Shown in pieces: positions 31,291 to 38,238 of a stretch of DNA of 64,000 nt; position 1 is the stretch's first letter, and every line of letters starts with the position of its first letter. Where the stretch lies: the IMG/VR virus record IMGVR_UViG_3300033463_000007, positions 95,865 through 159,864 of that record. One strand, given 5' to 3'. Source of the stretch: a virus (taxonomy: Duplodnaviria > Heunggongvirae > Uroviricota > Caudoviricetes). The notes below the pieces were generated by a model. It made no database searches, was not told where the DNA came from, and saw only the letters and a list, made by a program, of their open reading frames with translations. The position numbers were made by a program, and so were the translations under genes.

Positions 31291-31572
31291 ATGTTTGGAA
31301 GAACAAAGTTAAAGAAACAAATTGAAGAACTTATGACAGAAGTACAAGAGCTTAAGAATAAAAATAAGCAGTTATTTACAGATTGTGAAGCTCTTGGCAG
31401 AGAGGTAGCTGGCTTGCGTGCTATGGTTAAAGGACTATCAGCAAGGGTTGATAACTTGAGTAATCCAGCTATAGATTCTGAAATTCCAGTTACAAATGTT
31501 GGACAGACAAAGGCCACAGTATCTGCAAAATCAACAAAAGCTGAAACAAAAAAGAAATCTAACAAGAGATAG
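31291..31572 (+). CDS. coiled-coil hypothetical protein
   Basis: ORF track. Confidence 0.65.
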   Translation: MFGRTKLKKQIEELMTEVQELKNKNKQLFTDCEALGREVAGLRAMVKGLSARVDNLSNPAIDSEIPVTNVGQTKATVSAKSTKAETKKKSNKR

Positions 31573-31713
31573 ATGAGTAAAACAATTAAGCGGGATAAGA
31601 GGGATCAAAATGAGTTTTTTGAATACTCAAAAGATCAGTATGAATTTTTAAATAGAAAAAAGCAAAAAGAAAAAGCCCGTAGACAAAAGAAAAATAAAAA
31701 ATTTGATAGATAA
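31573..31713 (+). CDS. possible 46-aa basic protein
   Basis: ATG abuts the previous stop; K/R-rich; TAA stop. Confidence 0.4.
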   Translation: MSKTIKRDKRDQNEFFEYSKDQYEFLNRKKQKEKARRQKKNKKFDR

Positions 31714-31890
31714 TCTATTAAATTTTGGTATTCTTTACCGTATAATATAAATGCGCAGTCAATGATGAAAGCACTTAACCTATGTCATCCGTGTAAAATT
31801 TGGTAATCTTAACTACGATAGTGTGAGTACCTGGATAATCTGTTAAAGTTTCTCTACATCAGATAATTTCGCCAAGAAGAAACTTAATAT

Positions 31891-31912
31891 GCTACCCTGG
31901 CGGAATAGGCAA
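31891..31912 (+). tRNA. 5' fragment of a split long-arm tRNA-Leu
   Basis: GCTACCC-TG-GCGGAATAGGCA; the acceptor strand is complementary to GGGTAGC at 33289-33295. Confidence 0.7.
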
Positions 31913-31961
31913 GCCAATTTTAGCATAGTGATACAAATTATTGGCTAAATTAAATAGGTTT

Positions 31962-32038
31962 GGCGCGGTAGCCCAACTGGCCGAGGCAGTGGACTTAAAA
32001 TCCACACAGTGCGGGTTCGAATCCCGCCCGCGCTACCA
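31962..32038 (+). tRNA. trnL: tRNA-Leu(UAA), short variable loop
   Basis: GGCGCGG/CCGCGCT; GTGGA-CTTAAAA-TCCAC; GCGGG-TTCGAAT-CCCGC; A73 and CCA. Confidence 0.9.
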
Positions 32039-32060
32039 ATAATTTAGAAAGTAAATTATA

Positions 32061-32855
32061 ATGTATACTAATCATCATAAACAAATTTGTAAATATTGTG
32101 GGAGACAAATTGATGTAGCTTGTATTAAAAGACACGAAGCAGCTCATGAAAATCCAAATTCTAAAAAATACAATAATACAGAAATTCATTTAGATCACGA
32201 TGATTTATTCTGTAAGTATTGCGGAAAAGAGTGTAAAAATAAAAATTCTCTTGCACAACACGAAATAAGATGTTCACAAAATCCAGCCCGTAAAGATTTT
32301 AATAATTTAGGTAATTATAGTACTTTAGTTAGAAAAGGAAAGACGGCTGAAAATTTTGAAGAAATAGCACGAGCAGCAGAAACACTTAGTACTAGATATA
32401 AAAATAATGAGTTAATTTCTTCATTTAAGGGAAATAATTTTTGAGTAGGTAGGCACCACTCCGAAGAAACTAAAGAGAAGCAAAGATTAAAACTTTTAGA
32501 ATATATTAAAAATTTAAAAGGTGAAATACAAGTTCATTATAGTTTAGAGGGTTGTAAATATATTGATAATTTAAATAAGAAATATAATTGACAGTTACAG
32601 CATGCAGAAAATGGTGGCGAATATTGTGTTGGTGGATATTTCTTAGATGGTTATGATAAAGAATTAAATATTGCTTTTGAATATGATGAGCCAAGACACT
32701 ATATAGATGTTTATAATAATGTTTTATGTGATCGTGATATACAAAGAATGCAATTTATTATAAATAAGTTATCTTGTAGATTTATTAGATATAACCAAAA
32801 ATTAAATTTATTATATGAGATTGATTCAAATTTAAATATAGTAAATTTAGAATAA
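32061..32855 (+). CDS. homing endonuclease: zinc fingers + NUMOD3 + Vsr/EDxHD-like nuclease (264 aa, two TGA-Trp)
   Basis: CKYC...H zinc-finger-like motifs; RHHSEETKEKQR (NUMOD3); LDGYDKELNIAFEYDEPRHY; TGA at 32442 and ~32588; TAA 32853-32855. Confidence 0.8.
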
Positions 32856-32900
32856 AAATTTAAGGTTAAAGGTAATCCTTAAATAATAAAACCTTTTATA

Positions 32901-33246
32901 TAGGGGCTGATTGAAAAATCTGGGTCCCACCTTAAGGGTGCTATGACAGACCGGTAAAGGAAACCTTTGATATGGTGCGGGTTAGTAAAACGCTGTAGTT
33001 AAATGGAGTTTGAGGAACAGCCTATTATTCATAAATGTGTAGAGACTATATACCAACCACCTAAAGAGTAATCCATGGTGAAAACATAGTCCAGACTACA
33101 ACATCATAATGAGTGGCGGAATAGGTAGACGCGAAGTGTCGGCGTGGTGAGCGTGATAGCAATCCGAACCAGAATTAAATCATCGCCACATATAAGGTGC
33201 AAATCCTTATCTCATTATGATGGCTATGGTAACATAGAGTAGTAAG
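32901..33246 (+). mobile_element. group I intron catalytic core and 3' end (tRNA-Leu UAA, 34/35 position)
   Basis: P3 GGTTAGTA(32980)/TACCAACC(33051); P4 GCTGT/ACAGC; P7 GACTA(33044)/TAGTC(33087); candidate IGS GGGTCC(32922); terminal G 33246 precedes AAAATCCGC. Confidence 0.75.
33107..33217 (+). ncRNA. tRNA-like element embedded in intron P9
   Basis: TAATGAG/CTCATTA acceptor-like stem; GGCGGAATAGGTAGACGC D-arm; ATAAGG-TGCAAAT-CCTTAT T-arm; oversized anticodon arm; no CCA. Confidence 0.65.
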
Positions 33247-33299
33247 AAAATCCGCTGACCGCTAAGGTCGTATGGGTTCAAGTCCCATGGGTAGCACCA
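33247..33299 (+). tRNA. 3' exon of the split long-arm tRNA-Leu(UAA)
   Basis: AAAA-TCCGC-TG-ACC-GCTAA-GGT-CGT-ATGGG-TTCAAGT-CCCAT-GGGTAGC-A-CCA. Confidence 0.8.
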
Positions 33300-33379
33300 G
33301 AGACTGGGTAGCGCCCAGATGAACTGAGAGTTATCTCCCGACACCTCAGAGAGATTGACAAAATAATAGGGACCAATCT

Positions 33380-33454
33380 TGGGGTGTAGCCAAGTGGTAA
33401 GGCACAAGACTTTGACTCTTGCACTCGTTGGTTCAAATCCAGCCACCCCAGCCA
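33380..33454 (+). tRNA. trnQ: tRNA-Gln(UUG)
   Basis: TGGGGTG/CACCCCA; CAAGA-CTTTGAC-TCTTG; TTCAAAT; CCA. Confidence 0.93.
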
Positions 33455-33582
33455 GGAAGTTGGGAAGCTTAATTTCAAGTAGCACGTGATACGGAAATTC
33501 GGCAAAACAGATATGCATAAATACCAAATAAGGCACTTCCACCAATATTCCTCCTTAGCTCAACGGCAGAGCATTCGGCTGT

Positions 33583-34181
33583 AAAAAGTTAGCAGCCTTA
33601 CTTAGAAATAAGTAAGTGAAAATCTCGCTAAGTCGGTGAAACTTCTTATAGAGCAACGCCGAGCAAGAAAGAGTTTTTTAGAATGAATAGTAAAAATATT
33701 GGAAATATCGGAGAAGCTAAGGCACTAGCTAAATTTGTTGAATTGGGAATTCCTGTATATATTCCTTTTGGAGACAACGAAAAAGCTGATTTAATAGCAG
33801 AATTTAATGGAAAATTAAATAAGATTCAAGTAAAAACTTCTTGTAAGGCTAAAAATGGAGTTATGATTTTTGATTTAACTTCTTCAACTTTACATAGAAA
33901 ACATGGAATAAAACATATTTATACAACAAATGAAATAGATTATTTTGTTTGTTATAATATAGAACGAGATAAATTATTTTTAATTCCTATTGAAGCTGCT
34001 ACTAAAAGTGCTATCGCAATAAGATATTTACCAGCACAAAATGGTCAAAAAACAAAAATACATTTTGAAGCAGATTATTTATTTGAAGCTCTTTTATGTG
34101 TAGAGACTTTACACGAGATACCTAAGGATTAAATAATCTATGGTAAAGACAAAGTCCAAGCTATTCAGTTGAATAGTAAAG
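33583..34181 (+). mobile_element. group I intron (anticodon position 35/36)
   Basis: 5' exon ends in U and the intron ends in G; P3 ATCTCG/CGAGAT; P7 GACTTT/AAAGTC. Confidence 0.85.
33683..34132 (+). CDS. intron-encoded PD-(D/E)XK homing endonuclease (I-Ssp6803I-like)
   Basis: GNIGEAKA...IPFGDNEKADLI...KIQVKTS...YTTNEIDYF; the 3' end overlaps the intron P7/P3' core. Confidence 0.85.
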   Translation: MNSKNIGNIGEAKALAKFVELGIPVYIPFGDNEKADLIAEFNGKLNKIQVKTSCKAKNGVMIFDLTSSTLHRKHGIKHIYTTNEIDYFVCYNIERDKLFLIPIEAATKSAIAIRYLPAQNGQKTKIHFEADYLFEALLCVETLHEIPKD

Positions 34182-34226
34182 TAACCGAAGGGTTGTTGGT
34201 TCGAAACCAACAGGGGGAGCCAGAAC

Positions 34227-34729
34227 TTTTGCACTGCAGTAGTTGCTCGAAATAAAATAAACTGCATACTCCAGAAGAACTAGCATAGGGACCCGTTACC
34301 GAAGATTGCTTAGAGGGGGCAAATTATTGTAATAAATAATTTGGGATGGAAGAACGGATTATTAATATTTGTAGTAACAACTTTTATTAATAAGAATTAA
34401 TTTAATAATAGATCAAAAATTTCGAAATAAATCCTTTAGTACATAACCTATGTTACGGGTGCGAAATTGAAATGGAATAAGGTAGAAATATTTTTTAGCC
34501 AACTTTATTTTGAGACGAGGGTTGGAAAGCGAGATTTTTTCTGAGGCAAAGTATTCCATTGTGCTTTAAGAATACTTTTATTGATGAGGAGGAAAGTGTT
34601 TCTTAGGAAGCTTACAAGAGTGCACACTGTTGGTAAAAGCAGACAGAAATATAAGTAAGAGAAAAACTGAGGCGCGGTATAGTACATAATATTTGGGATT
34701 ATAAGTTAGTTATTATAAAGTGCTAAAAA
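34227..34729 (+). ncRNA. candidate ~500-nt structured ncRNA
   Basis: No + strand ORF; termini can pair (TTTTGCACT / AGTGC-T-AAAA); several internal hairpins; lies between tRNA-Asn and the tRNA-Met promoter. Confidence 0.4.
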
Positions 34730-34781
34730 ATATTTCTTTTCTTATTAAAAAATAATTTTTTTATTGTATAATATAATGTAT

Positions 34782-34858
34782 GGCGGTTGGGTGAAACGGT
34801 TTCCACGCTTGGCTCATAACCAAGAGACAATCAGTTCGACTCTGAATAACCGCAACCA
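34782..34858 (+). tRNA. tRNA with CAU anticodon (Met/fMet; G1:A72 mismatch)
   Basis: CTTGG-CTCATAA-CCAAG; TTCGACT T-loop; CCA; own TTGTATAAT promoter at 34764. Confidence 0.8.
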
Positions 34859-34860
34859 TA

Positions 34861-35080
34861 AAAGTGCTTACTGCAATTATTATTATGATAATCAGCAAGA
34901 TATAATTAAAAGCACTTTGTTAATAATGTTTAAGGCGCTTTACAGCAATTTTTATTTTTCTTTTCTGGGATGATTTATTAAAGATTTTTTTACAAGCGCC
35001 TTGTTTTTATCTAAAAGTAAAAGATGCATACAGCAATAATTTAATGGATCAAATTTGTAAGTTGACAACCTTGCATCTTG
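34861..35080 (+). repeat. three hairpin units with a conserved ACWGCAA motif
   Basis: 34861-34919 (AAAGTGCT/AGCACTTT), 34932-35003 (AAGGCGCT/AGCGCCTT), 35021-35080 (AAGATGCA/TGCATCTT). Confidence 0.8.
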
Positions 35081-35105
35081 TAAAAATATTGAAAGGATAG
35101 ACATT

Positions 35106-36662
35106 ATGGCTAATTTTATCAACAATCTTAAAGCAGAAACTAATTATACGGAAACAGAGAACGGTGCCGTTGCCCTTAGCTCAACTCTTAATAGTTGTCT
35201 TGATGCTTTTGGTTCACTTGGAGCTATGAGAGATTCTGAAGAAGAGCGTATTATTAAGATTTTTAGTCTTGCTTTTGCAGAAAATAGAGAGACTACCATG
35301 CGTATGCTTTTCTATATGCGTGATATCCGTGGCGGACAGGGCATGAGAAGGGTATTTAGGGTTATTGTTAAGTGGCTTGCCGAGAATAAGCCTGAATATG
35401 TTATTAATAATCTTGATAACTTCCTTGAATACGGTAGGGCTGATGATATGATTTGTCTGCTTGATACTTCTATTAAGGAAGCTATAGCTAATTGGATTCT
35501 TAATCAGCTTAATAAGGATTATGATGCTTATTTAGCTAATGAACCTATTTCTCTTCTTGCAAAATGGCTTCCTTCAGAAAATGCATCTTCAGCTACTACT
35601 AAGAGATATGCAAGAACTCTTTGCAAGCTTATTGGCTATAAGTATTCTATTTATAGACAGATTTTATCAACACTTAGAGCTTATAGTAATGTAGTAGAGT
35701 GTAAGATGTCCGCTAATAACTGGACCGAGATTAAATATGATCAGGTACCGGCTAGAGCTGCTATGATTTATAGTGATGCTTTTTATAAACATGATGAGGA
35801 AGGCTATACTAATTATATTACTGATGTAGCGACTGGTAATGCTAAAGTTAATGCAGCGTCTCTTTTCCCAGTTGATATTGTAAATAAAGCAAAAGCATAC
35901 CATGTATCTCATAAAGATATTATTCTTCTTGATGCTATGTGGAAATCACTTCCTAATTATGTAGCAGATCAGGAGGAAACTGGTATTTGTGTTGTTGATG
36001 TCTCTGGATCTATGACAGGTACTCCTATGGATGTAGCTATTTCTCTTGGTGCATATTTGGCAGATAAGTGCAGAGGGCCTTTCCAGAATCATTTTATTAC
36101 TTTTTCTAGTCATCCAAAACTTGTTGAATTTAAGGGTGCTAATATTGTAGATAAGGTTCACAATTGTATGTCTGCAGATTGGGGTATGAACACTAATCTT
36201 GAAGCTGTATTTGATCTTATTTTAAATACTGCTGTTAATAATAGTACTCCTGCTGAAGATATGCCTAAAAAGCTTTATATCATTAGTGATATGCAGTTTG
36301 ATGATGCAGCAGGCGATTATGTTTGGGATGGTCATCCTCGAAAGAAATCTTTTATGCAGCAGATGAAAGAAAAGTATATTGAGGCTGGTTATGATATGCC
36401 TACTATTGTATATTGGAATGTAAGAGCTTCTGAGTGTGGAATGTTCCAAGATACTTTTGAAGGCGAAAACTGTTGTATGGTTTCTGGATATTCACCTAGT
36501 CTCTTTAAGTCAATTATTGAGGGTACCACTTATGAGGAAGAACAGGTAAAAGATGCAACTACGGGTGAACTTAAAACTACAATTAAGGCAACAGTAAATC
36601 CTCTTGATGTTATGAGAGCCGCACTTTATAATACACGGTATGATGCCGTTTGGTGTGGTTAG
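35106..36662 (+). CDS. DUF2828-family protein (TROVE/Ro60-like N-terminus plus vWA domain)
   Basis: TETENGAVA...LDAF...RDIRGGQGMRRVF...GRADD...AKWLPSE...VVDVSGSM...IISDMQFD...YWNV. Confidence 0.8.
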   Translation: MANFINNLKAETNYTETENGAVALSSTLNSCLDAFGSLGAMRDSEEERIIKIFSLAFAENRETTMRMLFYMRDIRGGQGMRRVFRVIVKWLAENKPEYVINNLDNFLEYGRADDMICLLDTSIKEAIANWILNQLNKDYDAYLANEPISLLAKWLPSENASSATTKRYARTLCKLIGYKYSIYRQILSTLRAYSNVVECKMSANNWTEIKYDQVPARAAMIYSDAFYKHDEEGYTNYITDVATGNAKVNAASLFPVDIVNKAKAYHVSHKDIILLDAMWKSLPNYVADQEETGICVVDVSGSMTGTPMDVAISLGAYLADKCRGPFQNHFITFSSHPKLVEFKGANIVDKVHNCMSADWGMNTNLEAVFDLILNTAVNNSTPAEDMPKKLYIISDMQFDDAAGDYVWDGHPRKKSFMQQMKEKYIEAGYDMPTIVYWNVRASECGMFQDTFEGENCCMVSGYSPSLFKSIIEGTTYEEEQVKDATTGELKTTIKATVNPLDVMRAALYNTRYDAVWCG

Positions 36663-36675
36663 GTAATATAAATTA

Positions 36676-36748
36676 AAGGCACGGACAGCAATTTTTATTC
36701 TTATAAATTTAAAAATATGATCTTGAAAATCTTTTAAACAGTGCCTTG
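36676..36748 (+). repeat. fourth ACAGCAA hairpin unit
   Basis: AAGGCAC-GG-ACAGCAA...GTGCCTT-G, just downstream of the DUF2828 gene. Confidence 0.8.
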
Positions 36749-36758
36749 TAAATATTTT

Positions 36759-36786
36759 AAAAAGAGTCAATTTTTGACTCTTTTTT
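36759..36786 (+). terminator. Rho-independent terminator
   Basis: AAAAAGAGTCAA / TTGACTCTTTTT. Confidence 0.85.
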
Positions 36787-36837
36787 CTTTTTAAAATTGT
36801 ATAATATATTGAAAAATATAAAAAATATAGGTGTATT

Positions 36838-38238
36838 ATGATTGATAATCTTGAAGATTTTAATGTGAAACATTATGATATAATACTAGTTGGTGGTGGT
36901 ATTACAAATATTATATGCGCATTACAGCTAGCAAATGCCAATAAAACTGTTTGTCTTATTGAACAAGGAAATCCAATTAAAACACGTATTTGCCCAAAAG
37001 TAAAAACAGGAAAATGTATAAATTGCCAGTCCTGTCAGATTACTACTGGTTTTGGTGGAGCTGGGTTTTGTTCTGACTGCAAGTTAACTTATACTCATGA
37101 AGTAGGTGGAGACCTTGTTGATTATATAGATAAAGATACTTTTTACAAGCTACAGCAAAGTGTATCTGATATTTTCACAATGTTTGGTGCAGCAGAAACT
37201 TATGTTTATAATGAAGATTTTGCAAATAAATTTCAGTATGAATGTTCCAAATACGGTATGAAATTACTTAAATATCCAGTTAGACATTTAGGTACCGACG
37301 GGGCTAGAGGAGTAATGGAAGATATTTGGAAATACTTAAATAATGCTTCAAATATTGAAATAAGATGTAATACAAAAGTTACTGATATTGATTTTACTAA
37401 TAAATATATTAAAATAGAAAGAGGCATTCATACTTCAGTATTTAGTGCCGACTATATCTCTATTGCTGTTGGTAGGCATGGTAGTGAATGGCTATCTAAT
37501 TTATGTAAAGAGCAGAATATTAAGGTTAGTGCCGGTTCTGTTGATATTGGTGTCAGAGTAGAGTGCCCAAGATCTGTTACAGATAAAGTTACTAATAATC
37601 TTTATGATATGAAAATAGTTTATAATGGAGCTACTGGAAACACCTGCAGAACTTTTTGTGTAAATCCTGGTGGTGAAGTCGTTAGGGAAAACTATGATGG
37701 CAATATTGCTTGTGTAAATGGCCATGCGTTATCAGATAATAAACTATTTACTACAAATTTTGCTATTTTAGTTAGTTGTCATTTTACTGAGCCTTTTAAT
37801 TCTCCAATTGAATATGGTAAGAGTATTTGTAAACTTTCTAATATGCTTTCTGATGGTAAGCCTATGGTTCAAAGATTGGTAGATTTAAAGGCTTATAAAC
37901 GTAGCACAGCAGATAGAATTAAAAAACTTATTTATACCCCTACATTAGCAGAGGCTGAACCTGGAGATTTACGCTATGTATTTCCGTCAAGAGTAATTGA
38001 TTCTATTTTAGATTTTCTTGAAAAATTGGACAATGTTATTCCTGGTATTAATAATGGACAAACAATTTTGTACAGCCCTGAGTGCAAGTTTAGTTCGGCT
38101 AAAATAGAATTAAATAATAAATTACAAACACCAAATTATAAAAATATTTATTTTGCTGGCGATTCTGCTGGAATTAGTCGTGGAATAATGCAAGCAGCTA
38201 TTGCAGGCCTATTTATTGCGAATGATATTTTAGGGTAA
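36838..38238 (+). CDS. FAD-dependent oxidoreductase (uncharacterised FAD dehydrogenase type)
   Basis: VGGGITN Rossmann-like motif; GFGGAGFCSD; RHLGTD; RTFCVNPGG; YFAGDSAGISRGIMQAA. Confidence 0.8.
   Translation: MIDNLEDFNVKHYDIILVGGGITNIICALQLANANKTVCLIEQGNPIKTRICPKVKTGKCINCQSCQITTGFGGAGFCSDCKLTYTHEVGGDLVDYIDKDTFYKLQQSVSDIFTMFGAAETYVYNEDFANKFQYECSKYGMKLLKYPVRHLGTDGARGVMEDIWKYLNNASNIEIRCNTKVTDIDFTNKYIKIERGIHTSVFSADYISIAVGRHGSEWLSNLCKEQNIKVSAGSVDIGVRVECPRSVTDKVTNNLYDMKIVYNGATGNTCRTFCVNPGGEVVRENYDGNIACVNGHALSDNKLFTTNFAILVSCHFTEPFNSPIEYGKSICKLSNMLSDGKPMVQRLVDLKAYKRSTADRIKKLIYTPTLAEAEPGDLRYVFPSRVIDSILDFLEKLDNVIPGINNGQTILYSPECKFSSAKIELNNKLQTPNYKNIYFAGDSAGISRGIMQAAIAGLFIANDILG

Follow-up and report, generated by a model that had tools for sequence, protein, structure and literature searches.

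How can one tRNA-Leu gene of a tailed phage come to enclose another, together with an endonuclease gene and part of a group I intron? The locus in question spans positions 31891–33299 of a 64,000-nt stretch of DNA (the window; bases 95865–159864) from the virus record IMGVR_UViG_3300033463_000007, a complete Caudoviricetes genome of 232 kb with 31.7% G+C. Positions are those of the window unless genome positions are indicated, and all features of the locus are on the plus strand. The locus is best read as the scar of a conflict between mobile DNAs and not as a nested gene that works. We consider it probable that a homing-type cassette took the place of the central part of a tRNA-Leu gene with an intron, supplying a substitute tRNA and leaving the outer gene dead.

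The outer gene is left in two pieces. The first is a stub of 21 nt (31891–31911) that corresponds to nt 1–21 of the 5′ exon of a class II tRNA-Leu(UAA) gene. It reads GCTACCC-TG-GCGG-AATAGGCA, i.e. the acceptor strand, U8 and G9, the 5′ strand of the D-stem and the D-loop up to A21. An earlier reading made from the letters alone (the sequence-only reading) had noted perfectly complementary acceptor strands in the two pieces; GCTACCC (31891–31897) is indeed the exact 7/7 complement of GGGTAGC at 33290–33296 (chance at a fixed position ∼6e-5). After the acceptor strand comes TGGCGGAATAGGCA (to 31911), a D-arm start more frequent than any other in 100 intact phage tRNA-Leu(UAA) genes (see below). 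The break falls directly after GGCA, where intact genes go on with GAC(G/A)C. The second piece is an intact class II tRNA-Leu(UAA) 3′ exon (33247–33299; nhmmer model positions 231–315, E = 2.3e-19) that runs from A35 through a long variable arm (GACC/GGTC), a T arm (ATGGG/CCCAT), acceptor strand GGGTAGC and A73 to the CCA end. A35 stands directly after the terminal G of a group I intron (G33246|A33247); the junction, ATAGAGTAGTAAG|AAAATCC, is a 3′ splice site at the 34/35 site of the UAA anticodon, as had been proposed, and of the kind expected for an IC3 intron.

This junction belongs to a large family. When metagenomes were searched with the 20-nt 3′ splice junction ATAGAGTAGTAAG|AAAATCC, at least 120 loci were found to share it (loci are designated by L numbers where they have to be told apart). 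ARAGORN identified a contiguous 5′ exon, an intron of 200–1100 nt at U34/A35 and a 3′ exon in 100 of the 120 loci listed, both class II and short-arm tRNA-Leu(UAA) genes among them. The 20 loci without a call include every locus with less than ∼750 nt upstream, one that is cut in the 3′ exon (L072) and three with 2–3 kb upstream.

The intron that precedes the outer 3′ exon is present only as a 3′ remnant of IC3 type (32934–33246). The remnant includes the extension of paired segment P6, joining segment J6/7, P7 (33044–49/33086–91), the P3′ strand, P8 (33058–61/33077–80) and P9, and ends with the terminal G. Within the catalytic core, P7, the P3′ strand, P8, J8/7 and P9 are present, with 85–94% identity to intact members of the family; remnant and 3′ exon together score 132.6 bits, near the median of intact genes. 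The closest intact relative among the matches listed, the intron of L038, is 84.6% identical, and its similarity starts only at 32933, in the P6 extension. An assignment of 32922–32977 to the internal guide sequence, P2, P2.1 and P3 was considered and dropped, as L038 shows that the sequence from 32934 onward is the P6 extension.

Two profiles delimit what is missing. A hidden Markov model (HMM) of 36 introns free of open reading frames (ORFs) matched the Leu locus only at model positions 139–241 (33015–33117, 68 bits) and 231–315 (33214–33299, 65 bits). The tRNA-Asn, tRNA-Ala and tRNA-Thr introns of the same genome, our internal positive controls for intron profiles, were covered by this model from their 5′ parts onward. 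A second HMM was built from the 5′ exons and the first 135 intron bases of the 100 loci; its positions 40–145 represent P1 to P4′, with the signature AATTCGG...CCGAGC. It gave no match for these positions within 31880–33246, even unfiltered (--max, E up to 100), and detected no orphan intron 5′ half anywhere in the 232-kb genome; it does match the Asn, Ala and Thr introns. P1 with the guide sequence, the U-G pair of the 5′ splice site, P2, the 5′ strand of P3 and P4–P5 are not present at the locus, where ∼32 nt are available for an intron 5′ part that needs ∼93 nt. Rfam RF00028 gave no match at its gathering threshold, nor with E relaxed to 10; the result is uninformative because the intact Asn intron in the window went unmatched too, the model being insensitive to this intron family. 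The group I core reported in the sequence-only reading is thus real in its 3′ part, from the P6 extension to the terminal G, and lacking in P1, P2, the 5′ strand of P3 and P4–P5.

The 5′ exon is likewise incomplete. Its remaining part (the 3′ strand of the D-stem and the 5′ strand of the anticodon stem ending GCGGACTT), which had been reported missing after the stub, is absent at the locus and across the 232-kb genome. With the GCGGA CTT segment absent, joining the exons would not yield a full cloverleaf, and ARAGORN made no call for the outer tRNA-Leu with introns of up to 2.5 kb allowed. Since the 5′ splice site, the guide sequence and P4–P5 are gone, the outer gene is, on its sequence, dead: neither splicing nor a mature outer tRNA would be possible.

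A way around the missing 5′ exon had been suggested, in which the intron now splices from GGACTT within the nested tRNA (31991–31996), paired to GGGTCC (32922–27) as internal guide sequence, to give either the intact short-arm tRNA or a chimera. The pairing can be drawn on paper, with two G-U pairs, and the 3′ splice site, the terminal G and P7–P9 are all intact. We nevertheless regard such splicing as highly improbable, given a ribozyme that has lost P1–P5, including the 5′ strand of P3. GGGTCC itself lies outside the intron-homologous region, in the 78 nt that separate the endonuclease stop codon from the start of the homology to L038, and forms a local hairpin with GGGGCT (32903–08). The acceptor stem of the chimera would also be mismatched: by direct reading, its strands GGCGCGG and GGGTAGC pair at only three of seven positions. 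A metagenome search with a pattern around GGGTCC found no matches.

The other suggestion made from the letters, that an insertion destroyed the original 5′ exon and supplied a replacement tRNA, has fared much better, as the inserted arrangement recurs elsewhere. In six other metagenomic loci (L007–L011 and L013) the endonuclease gene directly follows an intronless tRNA-Leu(UAA) gene, and this tRNA gene is preceded by a conserved leader of ∼70 nt with the same stub breakpoint. An artefact of assembly that joined two tRNA-Leu loci, also raised earlier as a possible refutation, has virtually no chance of explaining the arrangement. A separate JGI contig is 100% identical over 31473–37632 (6.2 kb), the Logan contig L007, from run SRR30827637, is 94% identical over 31898–33027, from the D arm of the stub into the remnant, and the exact endonuclease protein is present on five contigs (JGI, ENA, Logan). 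As far as contigs show, a chimera is excluded because the JGI contig and L007 carry the same arrangement.

The nested tRNA-Leu(UAA) gene (31962–32038) is intact and intronless, as had been noted (ARAGORN; 62.3 bits with Rfam RF00005), and carries GGACTT|AAAATCC uninterrupted. It has the cloverleaf with a UAA anticodon, A73 and an encoded CCA; instead of the long variable arm that marks bacterial tRNA-Leu as class II, it has a variable loop of 5 nt, and the D arm is non-canonical (TAGCCC...GGCA). No other complete tRNA-Leu gene was found in the genome, and this one is the predicted working tRNA-Leu(UAA) of the phage. The copy in L007 differs by one G-C to G-U change, and short-arm tRNA-Leu genes of the nested type occur in L009, L010 and L013 as well. 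The canonical TGGYGGAATWGGYAGAC D arm seen in the stubs is missing from all cassette tRNAs, as would follow if some feature of the replaced segment were what the nuclease recognises. Short-arm tRNA-Leu(UAA) genes in other phages (L018, L019, L029, L068, L081, L095 and L099) carry an intron of the family at U34/A35, so that the nested gene represents a vacant target for such introns.

The surroundings of the nested tRNA are also structured. CTAAATTA (31945–31952), upstream of the tRNA, is complementary to TAATTTAG (32040–32047) just downstream. In L009, L010 and L013 the same upstream motif pairs over 12–13 bp with bases just 5′ of the GGAG ribosome-binding site of the endonuclease gene; in the window the downstream strand (32040–32047) can instead form a local hairpin that ends at the ATG. 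A stem that encloses the cassette tRNA could couple tRNA processing to translation of the endonuclease.

The endonuclease gene (32061–32855, 264 aa) contains two in-frame TGA codons and is open only when TGA is read as Trp (code 4). The phage uses this code, given that the longest open frame grows from 533 aa to 2906 aa under it; Trp177, a residue without variation in 34 homologs, is encoded by TGA. Two C2H2 zinc fingers and a NUMOD3 motif were detected with Pfam and PDB profiles, and the C-terminal domain (residues 157–264) is PD-(D/E)XK-like. The AlphaFold model, with a predicted local distance difference test (pLDDT) score of 84, gave VIA Z scores of 8.2 with Cas4 SSO0001, 7.4 with TT1808, ∼7 with Hjc, 6.7 with the catalytic domain of I-Bth0305I and 6.3 with Vsr; Foldseek alone found no match to the model at E of 0.001 or better. 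The protein has 916 homologs, while a search of IMG/VR yielded a single weak zinc-finger match, and it was not found inside any of the 120 Leu-intron loci listed. Between the window and L007, synonymous divergence (dS) is 0.37 and the ratio of nonsynonymous to synonymous divergence (dN/dS) is 0.045; the low ratio indicates that the endonuclease is maintained by purifying selection.

Downstream of the gene, its 3′ untranslated region and the right end of the cassette (32856–32933) can form the hairpins TTAAGG/CCTTAA and GGGGCT.../...GGTCCC. The first 73 nt of this segment (32856–32928) show no differences from L007, and the neighbouring sequence differs by 6.5% (ORF) to 14%. Nothing corresponding to this block was found in L038 or the intron profiles.

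The stubs tell where the cassettes came to lie. Each of the seven leaders opens with a variable 7-mer and TGGYGGAATWGGYA, together nt 1–21 of a class II tRNA-Leu. The breakpoint in the D-loop is identical in all seven loci, and the acceptor 7-mers and the flanks differ between them. In L009 the stub matches the 5′ exon of L108 at 21/21 positions; among the 100 intact genes, which hold ∼60 distinct acceptor 7-mers of 16,384 possible, the stub 7-mer GCCGCTG opens eight and the stub 7-mer GCTCCAG opens one. These matches indicate that the stubs are pieces of real tRNA-Leu genes. The notion that they are mere promoter-proximal spacers was rejected, since two of the four distinct 7-mers are real tRNA-Leu acceptor strands. 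Reverse complements of the 7-mers of the L008 and L009 stubs were not found in those loci.

In the window the leader proper occupies 31912–31961. Bases 31914–31925 are an inverted copy of stub nt 8–19 and can form with them a 12-bp hairpin with loop CAAG. Pairing is 9/12 in the window and in L007 and 12/12 in L008, L009 and L011, and alignment of the seven loci shows one compensatory pair. A second, small hairpin lies at 31925–31941. The motif GCTAAATTAAATAGG (31944–31958) equals the P4′-to-P6 junction of intact introns, where it directly follows CCGAG in 20 of 100. Because of this identity with the segment after P4′, the leader looks like a collapsed 5′ exon plus the 5′ part of an intron. Non-coding parts of the cassette are strongly conserved, differing from L007 at only four positions in 163 nt, where dS is 0.37.

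Such a leader is what one would see if the locus had decayed in place: a working intron once held the tRNA and endonuclease genes in its P6 loop, later deletions removed exon nt 22–34 to P2 and, between two CTAA repeats, P4–P5, and all cassettes descend vertically from it. In favour of this, degenerate intron parts can be traced in colinear order in the leader, the tRNA and endonuclease genes occupy the usual position of intron ORFs (the P6 region), and seven loci share identical breakpoints. We find this history unlikely all the same. The endonucleases of the window and L008–L013 are only ∼54% identical, yet the stubs have not drifted and remain identical to real acceptor stems (21/21 for L009 and L108). 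Window and L007 are 94% identical rightward of 31898 and differ completely to the left of it, with an unrelated flank and a different 7-mer, GTGAGCA in L007. Despite the dS of 0.37, the acceptor halves of the window still pair at all seven positions, and the score of the remnant is like that of intact genes. Homing of the cassette into intact alleles would explain both the different genuine acceptor stems of the stubs and the undecayed remnant. Given the 7/7 pairing and the 132.6 bits despite 29% synonymous divergence, recent entry into a fresh intact allele fits better than old decay.

Replacement by a homing-type cassette would thus have proceeded as follows. The starting point was probably a class II tRNA-Leu(UAA) gene interrupted between U34 and A35 by a group I intron of type IC3. 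A selfish cassette of ∼1 kb (31912 to ∼32933) would have replaced the middle of the gene, removing exon nt 22–34 and P1–P5 of the intron, i.e. its 5′ third. As cargo the cassette would have brought the leader (12 paired bases of which are the inverted copy of the retained D arm), the intronless tRNA-Leu(UAA) and the endonuclease gene. The endonuclease presumably cuts intact tRNA-Leu(UAA) alleles of co-infecting relatives within the segment that the cassette allele lacks. Repair would then copy the cassette in, with the conserved 5′ end of the exon as left homology and the 3′ core of the intron plus the 3′ exon as probable right homology. Movement of the cassette by homing is what we infer from these comparisons.

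Several facts weigh against this reading. No intron remnant was found downstream in the five diverged cassettes (L008, L010, L011 and L013 among them), which leaves the window and L007 as the sole loci that show a right-hand homology arm. An empty-site comparison calls for a nearly identical phage that lacks the cassette, and none was found; a search via the neighbouring DUF2828 protein returned only distant phages (at most 60% identity) with other tRNA layouts. P9 of the remnant holds a tRNA-shaped insert with an intact copy of the D arm, which would be awkward were the D arm alone the cleavage site. The match to the nuclease fold is only middling (Z 6–8), though consistent across proteins of the restriction-endonuclease fold. 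Finally, the low divergence of the remnant and the invariant 73 nt leave room for some function of the 3′ part.

The last point could be taken further, to outer halves that are kept for a function other than tRNA, either as a long-range acceptor/T-arm minihelix that would juxtapose the two ends of the transcript, allowing RNase P/Z to process the cassette RNA, or as a structured intron/P9 RNA. Retention of 7/7 pairing, the undecayed 3′ part and the invariant 73-nt block would all agree with this, as would the divergence of the remnant from L007 (14 differences in the 99 nt of 32929–33027, or 14%, versus 29% at synonymous sites). The chances of this explanation nonetheless appear slim: the five diverged cassettes have no 3′ part at all, L007 has another 7-mer, and the remnant gave no covariation with the three sequences compared. 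Recent re-homing of the cassette accounts for the same facts more simply.

A more specific form of the homing scenario may be put forward tentatively, and we would not lean on it. The cassette might be an active 'intron killer' that homes on intron-bearing tRNA-Leu(UAA) genes with the D arm and the 3′ core of the intron as homology arms; removal of the middle of the exon and the catalytic 5′ portion of the intron would at the same time render its own allele immune, and its intronless rescue tRNA-Leu, different in shape, would escape its own nuclease. If true, one selfish element would both parasitise and destroy another and would carry a built-in rescue gene.

The tRNA-Leu(UAA) introns of cyanobacteria and plastids and the IC3 intron in tRNA-Ile of Azoarcus are complete, self-splicing group I introns. 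The U34/A35 insertion site and the terminal G recur here, and the J6/7-P7-P3′-P8-P7′ pattern of the remnant, GTGTAGAGACTA ... CATAGTCCAG, is one that we take to be that of the Azoarcus intron. Unlike those introns, the one described here is a 3′ fragment; its family is phage-borne, with at least 120 metagenomic loci, and is found in short-arm tRNA-Leu genes as well. Carriage of a substitute gene part has a parallel in fungal mitochondria, where mobile endonuclease ORFs bring a replacement gene end and leave a dead stub. In both cases a selfish endonuclease gene carries a substitute for the displaced part of the host gene; the fungal ORFs replace the terminus of a protein gene in frame, whereas the present cassette brings a complete tRNA gene and the gene it displaces bore an intron.

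Among phages, the T4 tRNA gene cluster contains SegB, a free-standing homing endonuclease responsible for 'intronless homing' (PMC2330249). SegB recognises tRNA-gene sequence and is inherited preferentially together with neighbouring tRNA genes, with loss of recipient markers in the tRNA region (PMC2330249). Both systems place a phage endonuclease gene in the midst of tRNA genes. SegB belongs to the GIY-YIG enzymes, however, and the putative endonuclease described here combines zinc fingers and NUMOD3 with a PD-(D/E)XK-like domain; its cassette also lies within a tRNA gene, of which a stub is left, and the replacement tRNA that it carries differs in structure. Invasion of group I introns by endonuclease genes and collaborative homing have been described for I-TevII and sunY, and for F-CphI with the psbA intron (PMC3984707). 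The locus resembles these cases in that an endonuclease gene of free-standing type occupies the P6 region of a phage group I intron, where ORFs are usually found. The known cases end in a mobile intron that works or in one that protects its site; here the intron has lost P1–P5 and the host gene appears to be replaced rather than preserved. What would be new, then, is an overwritten gene that carried a group I intron, with the 5′ third of that intron removed.

If the proposed history is right, three layers of selfish DNA meet in one phage tRNA gene: the intron, the endonuclease and the carried replacement gene. It would also suggest a route by which phage tRNA genes lose group I introns, by overwriting with a cassette and a substitute tRNA and not by precise excision. 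The searches brought up two large families that carried no annotation in them, the group I introns of phage tRNA-Leu(UAA) genes (at least 120 loci) and the zinc-finger/PD-(D/E)XK-like endonucleases (∼900 proteins). For annotation, the locus calls for caution: an apparent split tRNA with an intron can be a dead remnant, and the gene to count is the short-arm tRNA-Leu.

The P9 insert mentioned above (33102–33222) corresponds to the tRNA-like element of the sequence-only reading. It folds at −38.2 kcal/mol (z = −2.0) and consists of a 12-bp stem (CATCATAATGAG/CTCATTATGATG), a complete tRNA-Leu-type D arm (33114–33133), a long arm and a T-arm-like hairpin (AAGG-TGCAAAT-CCTT). Its D arm matches positions 6–27 of the exon profile (E = 8.5e-4). 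P9 measures 41–48 nt in most of the related loci listed, of which ∼18% carry P9 inserts; no homolog of the present insert was found among the 120. The L038 intron has a different P9 insert with a similar loop, CGCAAAT.

Three tRNA genes of the genome carry conventional introns according to ARAGORN with introns allowed. In the window, tRNA-Asn(GUU) has a complete group I intron of 599 nt (33549–34222), inside which an ORF (33683–34132) encodes a PD-(D/E)XK endonuclease of family PF11645 (Pfam, E = 6.5e-33) with 792 close homologs in metagenomes. Another complete gene, L016, was reached via a relative of this protein and has an HNH ORF in the P6 region of its intron. The group I introns of tRNA-Ala(UGC) and tRNA-Thr(UGU) lie outside the window (genome positions 174676–175039, 175146–175661 and 205621–206273, ranges that include a 171-aa ORF). 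This ORF directly follows tRNA-Ala and fuses an HNH domain to a paralogous zinc finger 61% identical to finger 2 of the Leu-locus endonuclease; the shared finger therefore indicates shuffling of modules.

The tRNA set found by ARAGORN in the genome comprises Lys, Leu, Gln, Asn, Ala, Thr and Pro, with a tmRNA-like call at genome positions 209640–210045. Rfam added a weaker tRNA(CAU) at window positions 34783–34854. ARAGORN found no tRNA with a UCA anticodon in the whole genome, though the phage reads TGA as Trp. The DUF2828 protein is encoded at 35106–36662.

Searches of IMG/VR by exact pattern, for stub, 3′ exon and hairpin, gave no matches; a gapped leader pattern gave chance matches only, in AT-rich DNA. 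Sub-threshold matches to Rfam YrlA (bacterial Y RNA-like; 35–42 bits versus a gathering threshold of 69, E = 1e-6 to 1e-4) occur just upstream of the cassette in L008 (2568–2683 and 2714–2813) and ∼1.6 kb upstream of it in L009 (973–1088). The strands that flank these matches form a helix with one compensatory change. A promoter-like motif, G-TATAAT-ATAA, is common to window positions 31742–31747, L008 (∼2540) and the region upstream of the leader in L013, and precedes clusters of RNA genes. Both intact tRNA-Leu genes and stubs typically have ATAT directly before position +1.

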